Position numbers and translations under genes: made by a program. Shown here piece after piece: positions 28,387 to 36,324 of a stretch of DNA of 64,000 nucleotides. The DNA comes from Candidatus Thorarchaeota archaeon (lineage in GTDB: Archaea; Asgardarchaeota; Thorarchaeia; Thorarchaeales; Thorarchaeaceae): NCBI GenBank assembly GCA_019057475.1, contig DXJO01000010.1, positions 1-64,000 on the forward strand, given 5' to 3'. The notes beneath the pieces were generated by a model. It searched no databases. It saw only the letters and a list, made by a program, of their open reading frames with translations, and was not told the DNA's origin. The first letter of the stretch is position 1. Each line of letters opens with the position of its first letter.

Positions 28387-28602
28387 ATGGCAAAGAAACC
28401 CAAGCAGATTATTGTGGATACAAAGCTCTGCAAGGGTTGTCTTATCTGCATTTCAGTATGTCCGCATGGCGTTCTCAAGAAGGCTGATGAGGTCGACAAT
28501 CGAGGCTTCTTCCTTCCAGTTGTCGTGGACTTAGAAGCGTGCAAGGTCTGTAGACTATGTGAGATGGAATGCCCAGATTTTGCCATTTGTGTCGTAGAGT
28601 AG
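28387..28602 (+). CDS. 2[4Fe-4S] ferredoxin (2-oxoacid oxidoreductase delta-subunit-like)
   Basis: CKGCLICISVCP and CKVCRLCEMECP. Confidence 0.92.
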   Translation: MAKKPKQIIVDTKLCKGCLICISVCPHGVLKKADEVDNRGFFLPVVVDLEACKVCRLCEMECPDFAICVVE

Positions 28603-28774
28603 CAACCTGGGTAATGACTTGGCATCTAGAGCGATGGAATTCTTACAGCCCTCTAGTAATCTGGAACACAGAGATGTAAGAAATATGTAAATTTTCTACG
28701 ATACGCGGGAGTCATCCACATGTGCCTGCATCGCCATGACTCCCACTCAGTCCATCTCATTCCTGATATCTTCC

Positions 28775-31700
28775 CTAGGATACCCGGATACTCCTGTCCC
28801 GCAGGGCTTGGACACAGCTCCTGATTATATCCCTCAGCATTGACTCATCAAGCTTCAGTTCGCCAAGGTCACTCCTCACCATCTCTGATACCTCATCACG
28901 GCTCAGGCGGCCCCACTCCTGCATTTTGTGAATCCATGACAAGACCGGGTACTCGTACTCATCTCCATGCGTGGAGTTCAAGACAACGTGCAACTGCTCA
29001 CCTCCGAAAGAAGCCCTGCTTACAGTCACTCTCTCAAATGTCAGGTCAGCTCTCTCTTCACTCACTCTAGCACCCTCAAGGGCGTCCTCAATCTTGCCTC
29101 GAATCGCCGCCGTCAACTTCCTGTCTGGTGTCATACTGTACCGTTTCAGGAGCCGTTCCATCCCTTTCCTCATGAACTCACGGGCATCATCTGGATCACC
29201 CAGTGCAAGCCCTCTCTTTTTCAGTTTCAGTGTCCGCTCCTCGCCGACACCTCTCAGACAGAGTCCTATCGTGACCTTGTTCGGTTCAATCATGAACGAT
29301 GGGTCCCAGTTGTCCGCAGCATCCAAGTAGGTTCCGGGGATAATCAACTTCTTGTCACCATGCAGCAGCTTCCTGAGATGCCACGACTCTTGGAGTTCTG
29401 CATACATCTCTTTCTTGAGGATGAGGTCAAAGGAGTGAGTCACCCATGATTCTCTCTCCTCTGACCAGTAGACAAGCTCGCGTGCGTTTGCCAGGGACAT
29501 CGCCAGAGAGTCAGTCATTCTGAACTCCCGTAGTTCTAGCACTTCAGGGGGCATGGGCTGGCGGCTATAGATCCTGAATCTCCAACAGGACCCGTGACTC
29601 ATGCCAGACTCGTTGGCCAGACGTTCCGGCTGACCAAGGGGAGGTTCGAACCTGAACAAGTAGTCAGAGTCCACATGGCTGCCCCTCTTACGTTCTCTTC
29701 TTATGTCTTCCAATGAGATGTATCTCAGGGGACAGGTCCAGGGGTCATGATACACCTCCAACTCGAGGTCCATATCACGTTCTGCCAACATGAGATCATC
29801 AGCAGTTTGTGGTAGAGCAAAGGCAAGCTGTCCAAATGGGTTCTTTCTCTCCACCCATGGCCTGATAACTGCGACATCGCTTGTATACTCGATATCTCTG
29901 AATCTGTTCCAGATGAGCCGCTCACTCTCCACCACTGCAGGCTCGCATTCGTAGTCAGGTCTTCGGAGCAGCTCCAACAGGTCTGCGGTCCTGTTCACCA
30001 GTAGCCGCAGAGGCTTCTGCTCATCTTCCACGGGTCGATTGTCCGAATCAGCAAAGACGATAGAGTACATGCTCTCGTCATGGTCCAGTGATACATGGCA
30101 TTTGACTGACCTACAGCCCTCAAGACCCCTGTCTACAATGAGCATTGCCACATCGATGGGGTCGTTGAGGTATGAGGGAAGCCGTCTCACATCGTGAGTT
30201 GGGATTGCCTCAAGCAGTGGTTCCTCTCGCATAGTGATTGTTCTGACTAGAGTCACATCCTCGATTCGACGGGTTGTATAGTCAACCCTCCCCACCGGGG
30301 ACCAGATACCTCTCTCGCCATCGAGTATCCATATGGCCTGCAGGTTTCTGTGTCTGGCTATCATGATTGGTGTCCCGGTCGTCCTTCGTGCGATGGCGGC
30401 ATGCTTGCTGAGCCTGCTGATGTCGCTCTCGCTCCAATACGTCTTCTCGGACACCAGTGCCTTGAGAAGAGCGGGTGGGGGTAATGTCGAATCCACGCCC
30501 CTAGACGTTAGCAGGGCGGCATTCATCTCCTGGCCACCGGGTCTACGCTGGAACACCAGCCATAACATGTCAGAGCTGGCATCACCAGATGTGGTCGGCA
30601 CAATGAGCTGTCCGAACCGCACATCACTCACAGAGTTCATTGTTTCAAGCGTTGCATTGAGCTGGGACACCCTTTGCCGCAGTCGTGGCAGGAGCTTCTG
30701 CCGGTCCAGTACGGAACTTCCTGTCGTGTGGCCCTTGGGATAGCTTGCTCTGAAACCGAGTCCCATCAGATGCCATGGTATGACATACTTCCACAGTGAC
30801 TCAAGGGAGTCTGTAAGTATCACCGACTGTCCACCTCCCAAGGCCGCAAGAATCAACAGGAAGAGATGATTTCCGGTAATCAGCAATAGATCCGGGTGTT
30901 TCATCTTAATCCTCTCGATGTGTCCTCGCTGGTTTGAGTCTAGCGACTTAGGCCCCTTGGATCGAACTGGCCAAAGTCGTTTCCATAGCGTCTTGCTGAG
31001 GTCGCTGGTTTCCAGCGTTTGACGGACTAATCTAAGCCTGTTCATCAGTTCATCACTGCTGACTGTTGAAACCTTTTCTTCCTCAATCTCCAGTGCATCT
31101 CCCATCCTCTGCAAGAGATCCTCCCAATCATCAGAACCCTTCTGAGTTCCTTGGAGAAATTCAATCGTGTTACTTAGTGCTCTCAGTTCCATCCAAGCTA
31201 TAGAGCGATTGCTCACAGTCCTGATTGAGAGGAGTGCTTCTGACGGGGGTTTCGTGGTCCTCTCTGGCGGCCTGACGCCGAGCTTCATTGTCCTGTATTC
31301 GCGTCTTTGGTCAATCTTCTCCATGGGCAGGAGCCGCTTGATTCTTCCATCCGAGTCGATTCTGTCCTTGTACTGATAGAACTTGAACCGAAGTCTATCA
31401 GGCAGTTCCGAGTCCTCTACAGGCACATCATCCAGATGTACTGACTCTATCTCGTAGCTTGCGTCAACCCTTTCCTTCTCAGGCAATTGCTGTGACCAGA
31501 AGTGTGGGACCAGTGTTATCGCGTCTCTTATGTCGCCATCCGTGTATGTTCCGGCATATTTCACTGAAGAAACCGTAGTACCAATTGAGTAGGTCTCTCT
31601 TTGCTGTCGTCGCCCTCCAGACCTGAAGTCTTCACCCCAATCCTTGAGAACTTCCACATTGATTAACTCAGTCTTCGAAGTTGTCTCGTCGTGACGCTCT

Positions 31701-34195
31701 ACAACCAAGACTCTGGTGTCATAGTCTGCAGAGGCTAGAGCGCCGAGTCTGCGGGGCGGCATTGGCAGATTCCATACTATCTCATCCACATACCTCTCCC
31801 AGTGAGTATTCCTGTAGAAGGGAGCGACGCATCGTGTCTCGTATAGAGCGTTGTTCTGCGCTAGCGGGACCGGGTGAGCGAACCAGACCACTTTGCATCC
31901 AACCGGGGTTTCTGAGATGAGTAACCTTGCAAACTCGTTGAGTGCCCCGAGGAGAGGATCAGGAGTCCCACGCCGCAGGAAATCCCAACCGGTGACTACA
32001 ATGATCGGTTTCCTGCTGTCTTTCAGTACAGGTTCTACCTTGGCCTTGAGTTCCTTCAGTGTGGCTCCTTCATGGAGATAGGCTCTGACCACCGAGGAAA
32101 GGTCTATCATCTGCACTCTCCTCCTGTAGAATCGTTTCACTGAAGCGCTGTGTCGGGAGAGTCTAAGGCGTTGCCGCGCAAGTACAGAATCTCCATATTC
32201 ACCCGTAAGGTCGAACCAGATCACGTCTCTGGCTCGGTTTCGTGCAAGGCTGTGAATGTACTGTAGTCCGTGCCACCGTGAAGCAATGACTGAGGCAGAC
32301 TGGGATGGTGACCCTCTTCCGCTCACCGAGAGGTAAAGGATGAACTCCTTCTCATCGTCCACGCGATTCTTGAACGGGTCAAATTGCTCCACATAATTAA
32401 TCGGCCGTACTTCAGATGCTGAGATAGTGCTAGACAGAACTTTCAGGACCATTCTCAGAGGTCGACCGCTTTCACTAGGTCGGAGAACATCTCCCATGGT
32501 AAGATCATTGTTCGAAGCTCTTTGATAGGCCTCAAGAATAAGGGGCGAAATTGCCTTCCTCATTTCTCCCCAGTCCTCCTTAGAGTCTACAACAATTACA
32601 GCCTTGAGAAGGTCTGTTGGTGCTAGAGTGTCCTTCCGCATTACGCTGCTATACTCAGATAGAATGGCATCACTGTAGGCTTGAAGTTGTGCCCTGTTAG
32701 CCTCTGAAACAGGACTCGCAATGACTCTGTCCCAGTTGTCCTCGGTCATCCTCCTTCGCTCAAGTACGAACTCATTGACGGTGTTCTCTTCGCTCTTGGA
32801 TTTGGTCTCGACACCGTAGATATCGACATCGAATGAACTCCTAGTCTTCAAATCGACGACCATGCAGGGTTCGTATACAATTACGACAGGACTATTATCA
32901 GCTCGGGAGAGAAACTTTCTTCGCATCAAAACTAGGTCTGCACGTCCTCTTCCACCAGCCACGTACAATTCTGAGGTCAGCAACATACCCGATGTATCAT
33001 ATGTCATCTCATCTCCGTGATAGACCACTGCACTGAGCTTGAACGGGCTTGGGAAGTACTTGGAAATGAAACGATGAAATCTGACACCGACTCGCCTGCT
33101 CTCCTCAGTGGCCTTCCTAAGCAGCTCTCTTGCATCATCCTCCGTGAGTTTTCCATTCATTATCAGACTCTTGACCTGCTCAATGGAGTCACCCCACTCG
33201 ATGATACCCTCCTTCTTGGAGCGCGCTATCATTCGATCGAAGAGGTTCTTGAGCTGGTCTTCAGCAGCAGTTTCAGATTCATCGACTAGAGCGCTGAATG
33301 AATAATGGAGATCATCCGATGGAACCCACTCTTCCGCGGCCTCCTCAATTTCTTCAGGCTCATCGAGAGAGATCTCATTCTTCGACGTATGCTTCTCCAA
33401 GGATTCCGCAATTTCAGAAGTTATGGACTGAGGCCGACCGTTTCTCGTTCCAAACTGAGCACGTATTCGGTCCACGACCGCTCTCAGTTCTTGAATCCCA
33501 CCTCGAATGAAGTTTGAACGACCAGTGTTTCTCTCAGTGTACACGTAGTCCATGAAGGGCAACAGCCTGTCGACGAGTTCATCAACGTACTTCATGGTCT
33601 TCCTCCGCGGGACACCGTATTTCAGACACTGTCTAACTAGTTCAACGAGATGAGAGCGAATCATGTCTCCAAAGTCCAGCTCAGGCAGATGATTATGTCT
33701 CAAAGGATAGATTGGTGTCTTTGCAGAACCCGGATAGCCAACTCCAAGTTTCCCATTGCCCAGGGTAATCACCCCCGGTCTAGGGAACTCGAAGCGTTCC
33801 TTCATGACATCTCTGATTCTACTCCCCGAATAGTCCCATAACTGGTTCAGGTACTCTTGGTTCCCCTCACTGCGTTTCGTACGCTTGGTTTCCCTGTTGC
33901 CGTACTTGACTGATGTCTTCAACATGATTCGGGAGAAGCTTCTTCGTATATCCTTCTCGACCTTGAGGAGCTTCCACGCATCAGGAGCACCATTCGTCAC
34001 CGTTTCTTTATACTCTTCTTTCGCTTCTCTCCAAATCTTTGCCATGCCTTTGATGCGATTACCCTGACCATGGTACAACGGATGTGCCTCCCCAGTGGCT
34101 CTGTCTTTGGCCAAGGCAAGAGTTGCTGACATTGCCATCTGAAAGGCTGTGGTAAGGACTTTTGCAGGATTCCGTGGATATGAAGGATTGCGCAT
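28775..34195 (-). CDS. Very large (1806 aa) protein with a RecB-family PD-(D/E)XK nuclease domain
   Basis: Long intact ORF. Motifs GVRFH, ELYV..GRGRADLV, VVDLKT and AQLQAY in RecB/Cas4-like order; the rest is not recognised. Confidence 0.75.
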   Translation of the reverse strand: MRNPSYPRNPAKVLTTAFQMAMSATLALAKDRATGEAHPLYHGQGNRIKGMAKIWREAKEEYKETVTNGAPDAWKLLKVEKDIRRSFSRIMLKTSVKYGNRETKRTKRSEGNQEYLNQLWDYSGSRIRDVMKERFEFPRPGVITLGNGKLGVGYPGSAKTPIYPLRHNHLPELDFGDMIRSHLVELVRQCLKYGVPRRKTMKYVDELVDRLLPFMDYVYTERNTGRSNFIRGGIQELRAVVDRIRAQFGTRNGRPQSITSEIAESLEKHTSKNEISLDEPEEIEEAAEEWVPSDDLHYSFSALVDESETAAEDQLKNLFDRMIARSKKEGIIEWGDSIEQVKSLIMNGKLTEDDARELLRKATEESRRVGVRFHRFISKYFPSPFKLSAVVYHGDEMTYDTSGMLLTSELYVAGGRGRADLVLMRRKFLSRADNSPVVIVYEPCMVVDLKTRSSFDVDIYGVETKSKSEENTVNEFVLERRRMTEDNWDRVIASPVSEANRAQLQAYSDAILSEYSSVMRKDTLAPTDLLKAVIVVDSKEDWGEMRKAISPLILEAYQRASNNDLTMGDVLRPSESGRPLRMVLKVLSSTISASEVRPINYVEQFDPFKNRVDDEKEFILYLSVSGRGSPSQSASVIASRWHGLQYIHSLARNRARDVIWFDLTGEYGDSVLARQRLRLSRHSASVKRFYRRRVQMIDLSSVVRAYLHEGATLKELKAKVEPVLKDSRKPIIVVTGWDFLRRGTPDPLLGALNEFARLLISETPVGCKVVWFAHPVPLAQNNALYETRCVAPFYRNTHWERYVDEIVWNLPMPPRRLGALASADYDTRVLVVERHDETTSKTELINVEVLKDWGEDFRSGGRRQQRETYSIGTTVSSVKYAGTYTDGDIRDAITLVPHFWSQQLPEKERVDASYEIESVHLDDVPVEDSELPDRLRFKFYQYKDRIDSDGRIKRLLPMEKIDQRREYRTMKLGVRPPERTTKPPSEALLSIRTVSNRSIAWMELRALSNTIEFLQGTQKGSDDWEDLLQRMGDALEIEEEKVSTVSSDELMNRLRLVRQTLETSDLSKTLWKRLWPVRSKGPKSLDSNQRGHIERIKMKHPDLLLITGNHLFLLILAALGGGQSVILTDSLESLWKYVIPWHLMGLGFRASYPKGHTTGSSVLDRQKLLPRLRQRVSQLNATLETMNSVSDVRFGQLIVPTTSGDASSDMLWLVFQRRPGGQEMNAALLTSRGVDSTLPPPALLKALVSEKTYWSESDISRLSKHAAIARRTTGTPIMIARHRNLQAIWILDGERGIWSPVGRVDYTTRRIEDVTLVRTITMREEPLLEAIPTHDVRRLPSYLNDPIDVAMLIVDRGLEGCRSVKCHVSLDHDESMYSIVFADSDNRPVEDEQKPLRLLVNRTADLLELLRRPDYECEPAVVESERLIWNRFRDIEYTSDVAVIRPWVERKNPFGQLAFALPQTADDLMLAERDMDLELEVYHDPWTCPLRYISLEDIRRERKRGSHVDSDYLFRFEPPLGQPERLANESGMSHGSCWRFRIYSRQPMPPEVLELREFRMTDSLAMSLANARELVYWSEERESWVTHSFDLILKKEMYAELQESWHLRKLLHGDKKLIIPGTYLDAADNWDPSFMIEPNKVTIGLCLRGVGEERTLKLKKRGLALGDPDDAREFMRKGMERLLKRYSMTPDRKLTAAIRGKIEDALEGARVSEERADLTFERVTVSRASFGGEQLHVVLNSTHGDEYEYPVLSWIHKMQEWGRLSRDEVSEMVRSDLGELKLDESMLRDIIRSCVQALRDRSIRVS

Positions 34196-34446
34196 TGAGA
34201 TGAATCATTGTACTAAATATATAAGAATTGTTACGGCTAAAGTGACCTATGCAATACTCAATTTAACCCAAACATTCAGAGGCTAAACGCGGTTTTGTTA
34301 ATATGACGGAAAGCAGTCTTAATAACCTTATATAGGTTCATTCTGTAAAAGAATACGAGTTCAAAACCCCTGTTCAATACAGGGATGGGAGTGAACTCAA
34401 CTGACCGAAACAGGTCAGAACTTTATATAGGAGAAGACGAAAGGCG

Positions 34447-36123
34447 ATGGCTCAGTCTAAAGGTGTCACAATCTCTGTCAAGGTACCCATCAAATGGGAT
34501 GCGATGACAGAGAGAACACAACAGCGGCTCAGGCAAATTGTGGGCCGGGACACCAGAGCAGTCCGTGCTTTCCTTGGTATTATTGAACAACACGAAGACA
34601 AATTGTTGACAGGTCGTAACAATGGTAGGATACGTGATGGTGAGCTCGACAAGCTCACGATGACCGCAATCAAGGTCAAAGCAGGATTCCTTCAGAGATT
34701 GACAGTCCCGCATGACCTCAAGGCTCAGTTTTCTAGAATGTCGCAGAACGAGCTGACAGAGTGTCGGCAGACTGCAGTTGCACTCTATGAGAGCTACCTC
34801 AAACTTCGCAGGAAGAAAGGAATGAAAGCCTCCCGTCCCTGCAAGATCAACTCGACTCAGAGGATTCCTAGGTGGGTGTTCAATCAGAGGTTCAAGCTCT
34901 TTGAGAAACGCACGACTGTTGCTAGATGGTGGTTGGACTTACGTGATTCTCTTGACTCTGTGCCGGAGGGAAGGAGAGTCCACGACAGGCTCTTGATCCC
35001 CCTGAAGATGTCACCCTTTCATCTCAACCAGATTGATAGAGGGGAAGTTAAGGCACTACAGGTTCTCATTGATCGAAATGGGAAGTGGTGGGTGACCTTT
35101 GCAGTTCGAGTTGACACACCAGAGCCACCAACTGACAGTCTACCTCTGGCTGTGCTTGGAATGGACCTTGGTATCGAAAAGTCTGCATGCACGACCCTTG
35201 TCACTCCCACGAAGGTCAGGGAGACCAGATACTTCGTTCAGAGGGACAAGGTGAAGGTGATCAAGAAGTATGACAGACAGGTGGCAGACCTTCAACATGA
35301 GATGGCATCGAGAAGAAATGACGGACTGCCTTACGACAAGGTTGCAGAGAAACTCAGAAGGCTCCGAACAAAGCGAGAGAACGTTGCACGAGAGTATGAC
35401 CGCGTTCTGGTACGACAGCTTGTGGACTACATCACCGAGCTCTCTGAGAGATACACCCTGTATGTTGCCATTGGTAGACTCAAGAACATCAGGGTCACTG
35501 CACGCAGAGGTAACTTCAGGGGTCGCAGGTTCAGGGGGATGATCCATTCCTGGGCTTTTGCGAGAATCACTGACAACCTCCAGCATGCATTGGCACAGCT
35601 CGGATGGTCTGTTAGTGGAAAGGATTCTCGTTTCCGAGTAGTTCCTGAGAACTGGACCTCTATCATGTGCTGGAAGTGCGGTCGCAAGGGAAGACGCCCC
35701 AGGCAGAACTACTTTGTGTGTCCAACCTGTGGAAACAGGTGCAACGCCGACAAGAACGGAGCCATCAACATCGCCGGACGCCTCATTACGCTCACGGGAT
35801 CACTTCATTCTGTGAGAGGACTAGGCAAGTGGGCTAATGCTGTTTCACGCAGCCAACGCTCACTCCCGAAAACCCGAGGGAAGGTCTCTTCTCAAGGGAG
35901 GTCCTTACTCTCCATGAAGAGTGGTGTATCGCACTCTGGAGAGTCCGCGGCTGTTCACCATGCTCAGACGAGTCTTCTCAGTTTCAGCGATGAATCTGGG
36001 ATGGGTGATAATGACCCCGCCGTGGTAGGAACTGTGAAGACCCTCTCTGTCGCCGGGAGTGATACCCCAGCATCAAGACAGGAGAAGGAAGCCAGGTCTG
36101 TAGGAGGGATACCATCCCGATGA
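34447..36123 (+). CDS. tnpB: TnpB/Cas12f-like RNA-guided RuvC nuclease with rearranged RuvC-II
   Basis: RuvC-I GMDLG (D240); canonical RuvC-II position AIGRL has G343; alternative Glu in VPENWTS (E401); Zn finger CWKC..CPTC; RuvC-III NADKNGAINI (D435). Confidence 0.88.
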   Translation: MAQSKGVTISVKVPIKWDAMTERTQQRLRQIVGRDTRAVRAFLGIIEQHEDKLLTGRNNGRIRDGELDKLTMTAIKVKAGFLQRLTVPHDLKAQFSRMSQNELTECRQTAVALYESYLKLRRKKGMKASRPCKINSTQRIPRWVFNQRFKLFEKRTTVARWWLDLRDSLDSVPEGRRVHDRLLIPLKMSPFHLNQIDRGEVKALQVLIDRNGKWWVTFAVRVDTPEPPTDSLPLAVLGMDLGIEKSACTTLVTPTKVRETRYFVQRDKVKVIKKYDRQVADLQHEMASRRNDGLPYDKVAEKLRRLRTKRENVAREYDRVLVRQLVDYITELSERYTLYVAIGRLKNIRVTARRGNFRGRRFRGMIHSWAFARITDNLQHALAQLGWSVSGKDSRFRVVPENWTSIMCWKCGRKGRRPRQNYFVCPTCGNRCNADKNGAINIAGRLITLTGSLHSVRGLGKWANAVSRSQRSLPKTRGKVSSQGRSLLSMKSGVSHSGESAAVHHAQTSLLSFSDESGMGDNDPAVVGTVKTLSVAGSDTPASRQEKEARSVGGIPSR

Positions 36124-36129
36124 TGATAG

Positions 36130-36250
36130 ACAAAGCCCCTGCTGACTCCAGACTCCGCCGGAGTGTGGAGGATGGCGACATCTGGCAGGGGAAGGGTGGA
36201 ACACAGGAGTCTCTTACAGTTGAGTGTCACTCACATGAAATGTAAGAAAC
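36130..36250 (+). ncRNA. Candidate omegaRNA scaffold / element right end of the TnpB locus
   Basis: Nested hairpin CCCCTGC..CTCCA..ACTCC/GGAGT..TGGAG..GCAGGGG, then a TCTTACA/TGTAAGA stem enclosing GAGTG-T-CACTC and a TCAC motif; directly 3' of tnpB, where omegaRNAs usually lie. Confidence 0.5.
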
Positions 36251-36324
36251 GGGTAATAATACAATGAGTGATATAATCGTGGGTCAATCTGTTCACCGAT
36301 TTGGCCAACGCAATGGTGTAGATA

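Follow-up and report, generated by a model that had tools for sequence, protein, structure and literature searches.

In the 64,000-nt stretch of Thorarchaeota DNA analysed here (the window), a mobile element was identified whose omegaRNA probably acts as a tracr-like scaffold for a second, self-targeting guide carried in the leader of tnpB; with this guide the intact TnpB would bind its own TATA box and repress it. The reading was derived from comparison of homologous sequences. The preliminary description of the locus had noted two mutually complementary segments on either side of tnpB, and had proposed either a guide split into two RNAs, the upstream one tracr-like, or an element with terminal inverted repeats (TIRs). 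Of the two-RNA model, the pairing is retained, since it is conserved, covarying, tolerant of G.U pairs and strand-asymmetric. The roles assigned to the two RNAs appear to be reversed: the upstream RNA would provide a scaffold end and a spacer (crRNA-like), and the downstream omegaRNA the anti-repeat and the pseudoknot site (tracr-like). Against the model as first drawn, the omegaRNA has retained a 3′ end and a flank guide of its own, and may therefore not need the upstream RNA. The positions of all features are presented in Table 1.

Table 1. Features of the aCas1-TnpB element of the window, in order of position.
Feature	Position	Strand	Remarks
Left end of the mobile element	28629-28760	+	begins at ~GAGCGATGG; hairpin resembling the right-end hairpin; exact base uncertain by ~3 nt
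aCas1 gene, 1806 aa	28775-34195	-	probable integrase/transposase; Cas1 fold in residues 1-235, then PD-(D/E)xK-like domain
TAM-like motif TTAAT 5′ of self-target	34319-34323	+	putative TAM; part may be promoter constraint
Self-target (protospacer) over the TATA box of the leader/tnpB promoter	34324-34336	+	12/13 match to spacer 34419-34431
Leader RNA scaffold (crRNA-like)	34355-34418	+	~64 nt; start predicted from a conserved motif 30-31 nt after target start
Leader 5′ sequestering arm	34357-34363	+	inner hairpin after it
Leader pairing arm	34385-34403	+	
Leader pseudoknot strand GGTCA	34413-34417	+	
Leader spacer (putative self-targeting guide, ~12-15 nt)	34419-34433	+	formerly read as second TATA box
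tnpB, 558 aa	34447-36123	+	rearranged RuvC (D240, E401, D435; G343 at canonical RuvC-II site), C4 zinc finger
omegaRNA scaffold, ~450 nt	35806-36257	+	short copies start at the equivalent of 35806; 5′ end predicted
omegaRNA pseudoknot site ATGACC	36011-36016	+	complementary to leader end strand
omegaRNA terminal hairpin	36212-36247	+	loop 36217-36236 pairs with leader
omegaRNA own 3′ end GGGTAAT	36251-36257	+	conservation ends at 36257
Flank-derived (cis) guide of the omegaRNA	36258-36277	+	host DNA at insertion site; matches G001 empty site from here; variable among copies

The ends of the element were defined by means of an empty site, as the preliminary description had envisaged. In a genome of the same genus (G001, locus L077), the ferredoxin gene (28387-28602 in the window) directly abuts the gene of a 190-aa protein (36325), and the segment from ~28629 to 36257 of the window is therefore an insertion, 7.6 kb in size. 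The left junction, supported by this empty site, is common to short copies found on contigs C18, C21 and C34 and in genome G004. The short copies, which consist of the left end and the last ~450 nt, are dispersed in the genome of the window (G000, 96% complete) and in G004. They do not contain the upstream 20-mer, which lies 5.7 kb inside the element, and this arm is therefore unnecessary for dispersal. Since the arm is internal and neither 20-mer is accompanied by a target site duplication (TSD), whose absence had already been noted, the TIR reading, modelled on the carriers of Fanzors, fails; no terminal inverted repeats with TSD were found, conservation continues past both 20-mers, and the short derivatives occupy many sites.

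The element is a member of the published Thorarchaeota aCas1-TnpB family (PMC10691335). It occurs in multiple copies per genome, with empty alleles, a giant Cas1-fold gene adjoins tnpB, and a GTTCACTCA-type motif (GTGTCACTCA in the window) lies downstream, its CACTC core being present in 81/81 scored loci. Nearly all related loci with a named host come from Thorarchaeota. The preliminary description had noted no tnpA; no Y1 tnpA is present in G000, and no linked Y1 or serine TnpA of the IS200/IS605 or IS607 type accompanies the window locus. Of two serine recombinase genes on other contigs of G000, one adjoins a second-group element on C53 at its left end. To speak of an element with no transposase would nevertheless be misleading, because the divergent 1806-aa Cas1-fold gene belongs to it. 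A simple scan of G000 confirmed the lack of exact-repeat CRISPR arrays.

The 1806-aa protein was aligned (VIA-align) with Cas1 over residues 2-224 (Z 13.1, rmsd 3.8, 179 aligned residues), and its top 12 matches are all Cas1/casposase-type chains; the Cas1 matches obtained with Foldseek were weak, and Pfam, NCBIfam and the ESM Atlas provided no family. The gene is missing from the empty site; among the first 71 loci, ~29 have a homologue upstream of tnpB in divergent orientation. It is probable that aCas1 is the integrase/transposase of the element (cf. PMC10691335).

The tnpB product matched the profiles PF07282, PF01385 and NF040570, the last with a score of 85.9 bits, below the cut-off of 100. 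Its score with NF049972, a profile of the Cas12f/TranC type V side, was 62 bits vs a cut-off of 450, and the predicted fold matches the structures of Cas12f and TnpB. Residues D240, E401 and D435 and the four Cys are invariant in 88/88 intact homologues, which carry Gly at the canonical RuvC-II position. A rearranged RuvC of this Gly-for-Glu type has been described, and such proteins were predicted to be active (PMC10691335). As in OMEGA nucleases, the RuvC domain and the C4 zinc finger are accompanied by the catalytic residues; the invariant triad differs from the inactivated RuvC of TldR proteins.

The last ~105 codons of tnpB overlap the omegaRNA. The flat codon-position variability over residues 455-556, together with the end of conservation after RGGTYAK at 36257, points to an omegaRNA of ~450 nt with a flank guide starting at 36258, i.e. 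a structured 3′ RNA of the OMEGA type, which overlaps the ORF, ends at the element boundary and takes its guide from the flank. Its predicted fold has a z-score of -2.3, and no Rfam family matched it up to E 5. The terminal hairpin is as previously described (TCTTACA at 36212-36218 and TGTAAGA at 36241-36247, then GAAAC). No convincing second target of the flank guide was found in G000; a 13/16 resemblance to the start region of the aCas1 gene was treated as chance.

Inspection of the leader confirmed that 18 of 20 aligned positions (one mismatch, one gap) are complementary between 34385-34403 and 36217-36236, a value equalled by 3 of 5000 dinucleotide shuffles of both flanks. The upstream hairpins were also recovered: the leader has a predicted fold of -27.2 kcal/mol (z -4.7), and this architecture is kept in ~100 unique leaders. 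Stand-alone leaders away from tnpB were not found in G000. Alignment of the homologous loci, which had been suggested as a check, revealed that the complementarity is conserved. The GAGTG/CACTC core of the leader-omegaRNA duplex is invariant (81/81 unique loci), with compensatory and G.U changes around it. Positions 1-9 of the duplex comprise, in these 81 loci, 648 Watson-Crick pairs, 49 G.U pairs (45 of which stem from one column), 6 A.C and 26 other combinations, and one distal pair is A-U in 20 cases, G.U in 17, G-C in 3 and A.C in none. In paralogues with 45-67% protein identity both sides of the duplex change together. The sense strands pair better than the antisense strands in 31/32 loci, and in independent pairs the own partner was better than a swapped one 17 times and worse 5 times, with 16 ties (p=0.017). 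Judged by these substitutions, the complementarity is that of a conserved and covarying RNA duplex; at the sequence level, the covariation would fit a repeat:anti-repeat duplex between two RNAs, of the kind used by Cas12f or TranC.

The leader pairing often reaches into the 5′ arm of the terminal stem of the omegaRNA, and the leader would therefore displace the omegaRNA's own 3′ arm. The calculated gain of the two-RNA duplex for naked RNA is small (~-1 kcal/mol at the window; mean -2.7 vs -2.1 for swapped partners), since the hairpin of the leader itself makes the exchange almost neutral in energy. This weakens a simple equilibrium argument, and suggests that the switch is set by folding order or by the protein. 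The end of the leader (GAAAC-RGGTCAG) mirrors the 3′ end of the omegaRNA, and contains the strand complementary to ATGACC at 36011-36016. A variable pair between the leader end and the omegaRNA body, 1.6 kb away, is A-U in 52 cases, G-C in 11 and U-A in 3. The leader-omegaRNA pseudoknot pair is matched at a frequency of 0.97 vs 0.76 across loci, also in leaders without a 5′ arm of their own. We read this as a putative omegaRNA pseudoknot that could be completed by either RNA, the pseudoknot itself being assigned by analogy with TnpB RNAs of solved structure.

Both TATA-like boxes mentioned in the preliminary description (34327-34334 and 34422-34429) are present. The second had been taken for the promoter of a nearly leaderless tnpB mRNA, which is disfavoured by its geometry: the spacer start is 21-30 nt from the start codon, vs 30-31 nt from target start to the presumed start motif, and transcription would begin at or after the start codon of tnpB. 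This box copies the first promoter locus by locus and is better read as a spacer. A match of at least 10/12 to the promoter, at a fixed distance of 93-99 nt, was found in 73/89 leaders and in 53/56 loci still joined to aCas1. The exact prefix shared by a spacer and its own promoter averages 12.2 nt, vs 2.4 nt across loci. There are 60 distinct spacer 13-mers in the 73 loci, and the match is at background by position 16, the per-position rates being conditional on the filter of at least 10/12. A ribosome-binding-like motif lies where the match drops after position 15, so that the drop need not reflect avoidance of cutting. In 35 phylogenetically independent pairs from the TnpB tree, 136 changed sites comprise 115 identical spacer-promoter co-changes, 7 other double changes and 14 one-sided ones; at the control positions 17-20, co-changes amount to 3/103. 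Of the 20 seed mismatches, 13 become rG.dT or rU.dG wobbles when the downstream copy is considered as RNA, and none has the opposite polarity; the single mismatch of the window's own spacer is an rU.dG wobble at position 4.

The self-target (34324-34336) is the only near-match to the spacer in G000 that has a TAM-like flank. Across the loci this flank contains T at -1 and at -4 in 73/73 and A at -2 in 67/73. As YTTMAT stands before the target, and GGTCAG before the DNA of the spacer itself, only the promoter would be engaged. For flank guides, most empty sites have AAT or AGT at their end instead of TTAAT; what they share with the self-targets is chiefly the T at -1 and, in part, the A at -2, and no clean TAM is derivable from them. 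The arrangement is that of known crRNA-like autoregulators, whose short spacers match a promoter of the system itself, next to a PAM or TAM. It recurs in a second group of aCas1-TnpB elements (~710-770 aa, canonical Glu) with other sequences, a self-match of 11.8/13 vs 5.7, and the flank YTGDT; a group-specific flank motif fits a TAM read by the protein. Every spacer differs within a genome, and within-genome divergence is not clearly above that between genomes; the notion of spacer "incompatibility groups" is thus speculative.

From these patterns we infer the following mechanism. One promoter (TATA box at 34327-34334) would produce a transcript composed of a ~90-nt leader, the tnpB ORF and the omegaRNA, from which the leader RNA might be processed, and the leader would pair with the omegaRNA either in cis on one transcript or in trans. 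Two states are envisaged: (i) the omegaRNA's own 3′ end closes the terminal hairpin and the pseudoknot and presents the flank guide, which, from known TnpB biology, would lead to ordinary cutting of empty sites, or (ii) the leader pairs with the loop and 5′ arm of the terminal hairpin, supplies its own pseudoknot strand and, in a two-RNA RNP, presents a 12-15-nt spacer matching the element's promoter beside the TAM-like motif. Leader-loaded TnpB would occupy the TATA box through a duplex whose shortness prevents efficient cutting, and would thereby shut down its own transcription in a negative-feedback loop. The share of each state would depend on the internal hairpin of the leader, which has almost the same energy as the two-RNA duplex. 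Short guides do allow an active TnpB to bind without cutting, indels falling from 14 nt and being gone at 10 nt (PMC13507860), and tracr-L represses cas9 via an 11-bp duplex (as summarised in 10.1101/2023.03.03.530964).

The leader guide might instead direct cutting or nicking of the promoter, as a self-inactivation, addiction or gene-conversion device, which would also explain the tight co-change of spacer and promoter and the few one-sided intermediates. The triad is intact in all 88 homologues, ISDra2 TnpB uses only ~12 nt of its guide (PMC10278001), so that a 12-15-nt leader spacer could still cut, and the promoter is often missing from loci without aCas1 (23/31). The match is kept, however, in nearly all intact elements (53/56) with no sign of seed escape, and an element that frequently broke both strands of its promoter would be purged; we consider promoter cutting quite improbable. 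It is somewhat less improbable, though still unlikely, that the leader works as a mini-guide by itself, or binds to the omegaRNA by the pseudoknot strand alone, with the promoter still repressed and the 20-nt complementarity serving mainly another use, e.g. antisense inhibition of the omegaRNA by the mRNA leader. The leader does fold stably alone, sequestering most of its pairing arm, the duplex gain is small, and mRNA-borne inhibition of TnpB cleavage has been reported for AmaTnpB (PMC10278001). Nevertheless, at 64 nt it is far shorter than the ~450-nt conserved scaffold, and it has in register the duplex, the stem extension and the pseudoknot strand needed to replace the omegaRNA's own 3′ arm.

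The original form of the split model, with the upstream RNA as an obligatory tracr-like partner for the flank-guide activity of the downstream RNA, accommodates the invariant core pairing and the position of the paired segment near the flank guide, as in Cas12f repeat:anti-repeat duplexes. It conflicts with the structured body being downstream and not upstream, with the spacer carried by the leader itself, and with the omegaRNA's own closing stem and pseudoknot strand, which compete with those of the leader for the same sites, and we find it about as improbable as promoter cutting. An explanation at the DNA level, in which the 20-mers are inverted aCas1 binding sites or TIR-like ends, and the second TATA-like box is a tandem promoter whose likeness to the first is maintained through duplication or conversion, seems very improbable. 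An invariant GAGTG/CACTC core could indeed be a protein-binding site and both boxes are TATA-like, but the internal position of the upstream arm with no adjacent TSD, the dispersed derivatives that lack it, and the second box placing a transcription start at or after the start codon all speak against this, as do the bias for G.U over A.C, the strand asymmetry and the wobble polarity.

Asgard aCas1-TnpB elements were reportedly the subject of earlier work by Makarova et al. in 2020. The elements Cas1H-Asgard-1 and -2 were described by Altae-Tran et al. in 2023 (PMC10691335, main text), and the window resembles them in the giant Cas1-fold gene beside tnpB in Thorarchaeota, in the downstream GTTCACTCA motif and in the occurrence of two TnpB groups. 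In the main text of that paper, a term search found no leader RNA or self-targeting, and the hypervariable stretch upstream of GTTCACTCA was proposed as the spacer. In our analysis, by contrast, the GTTCACTCA motif would be the pairing site of the leader and the guide would start after RGGTYAK. The published guess on the guide position in aCas1-TnpB is thereby revised.

The scaRNA borrows the tracrRNA as its scaffold. The predicted leader guide resembles tracr-L/scaRNA, CreA of Cascade and mini-array regulators, in which, as summarised in 10.1101/2023.03.03.530964, a short guide with a partial match brings an active effector to its own promoter, which is thereby repressed; unlike in these CRISPR autoregulators, the effector here is a transposon TnpB, there is no array, and the scaffold would be an omegaRNA with its own cis guide. 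With TranC (Jin et al. 2025, as summarised in PMC13639567) it shares the division of the omegaRNA function between a scaffold and a separate guide-bearing RNA. TranC leads with a tracrRNA and crRNA toward type V CRISPR, whereas the window has one spacer, no array, a self target and a persisting unsplit omegaRNA. RNA-guided repression by a TnpB-family protein is known from TldR (10.1101/2023.11.30.569447), and repression of a tnpB promoter from the action of Arc on IS605 (10.64898/2026.09.24.754181). The TnpB of the window differs in being mobile and in having retained the catalytic residues; guided by RNA, it would repress its own expression without the help of a dedicated repressor protein.

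The element family, the rearranged RuvC, CRISPR RNA-guided autorepression and the splitting of the reRNA in TranC have each been published separately. Our literature search, which mostly covered papers outside subscription journals, found no report of a TnpB transposon in which a second natural guide uses the omegaRNA and targets the element itself. We tentatively propose, as a possibility that goes further than the mechanism itself, that in both aCas1-TnpB groups, beside a Cas1-fold integrase, a mobile TnpB system without an array might natively use one omegaRNA both as a single guide (homing) and as the tracrRNA of a separate crRNA-like leader (autorepression), that guide splitting for self-regulation might precede any CRISPR array, and that rapidly diverging spacer-promoter pairs might keep co-resident elements independent. 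The known restraints on the DNA-cutting TnpB of transposons are a protein repressor (Arc) and inhibition by mRNA; for this locus, feedback by an active nuclease under RNA guidance is predicted. Such a brake resembles those described for CRISPR systems, and our literature search found none for a transposon TnpB. It would provide a concrete route for the split of omegaRNA into tracrRNA and crRNA behind type V CRISPR, without an array and beside a Cas1-fold protein, and suggests a natural two-part TnpB guide with a swappable ~65-nt module.

Elements of the second group were localized in G000 (C53, 6986-9286; C54, 171708-173867; C42, 185750-187888) and at L243-L272. Their spacer lies inside the 5′ end of the open frame, after a ACAATGGAYGRY motif that mirrors their own 3′ end. 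At L184, just upstream of tnpB (match from near 1118), the complete omegaRNA end of one element runs straight into a TATA-like spacer and the next tnpB; this tandem recombinant resembles a fused single guide against a promoter. A tandem duplication of the scaffold end and guide downstream of the omegaRNA end, similar to a two-unit mini-array, was observed at L027, L064, L125 and L158. The omegaRNA end of the window's element (36251-36257) terminates in TAAT, as does the flank of the self-target, and would form the predicted pseudoknot with an A.G mismatch; the leader strand, unlike this end, shows perfect predicted pseudoknot pairing over five bases.

A hairpin and a GGAACACAG motif similar to the terminal hairpin of the omegaRNA are found at the left end of the element (28636-28680), where they may represent a recognition site or what is left of an earlier right end. 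At the site orthologous to 28629-36270 of the window, G004 (L076) carries the left end and omegaRNA only, and in G005 (L075) the contig begins inside the omegaRNA; both have a 12-nt deletion where the flank guide starts. In two cases (28629/36258 of the window vs L077, and G000:C34 vs L202), 27-28 nt of the empty allele are absent from the filled site, and a third filled/empty pair (G000:C21/C2 vs L203-L207) has an apparent 5-bp duplication if C21 and C2 are assumed to join. The 3′ part of a 16S rRNA gene apparently harbours or adjoins a divergent aCas1-TnpB element (G000:C9, to 22990; L111). Its rRNA-like flank guide was also found in other genomes (L215, L218 and L222), which suggests a fixed rRNA target. 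Other right ends abut tRNA genes or tRNA-like sequences (G000:C21 ~106220 and C54 ~99365; L030, L042, L061 and L069).
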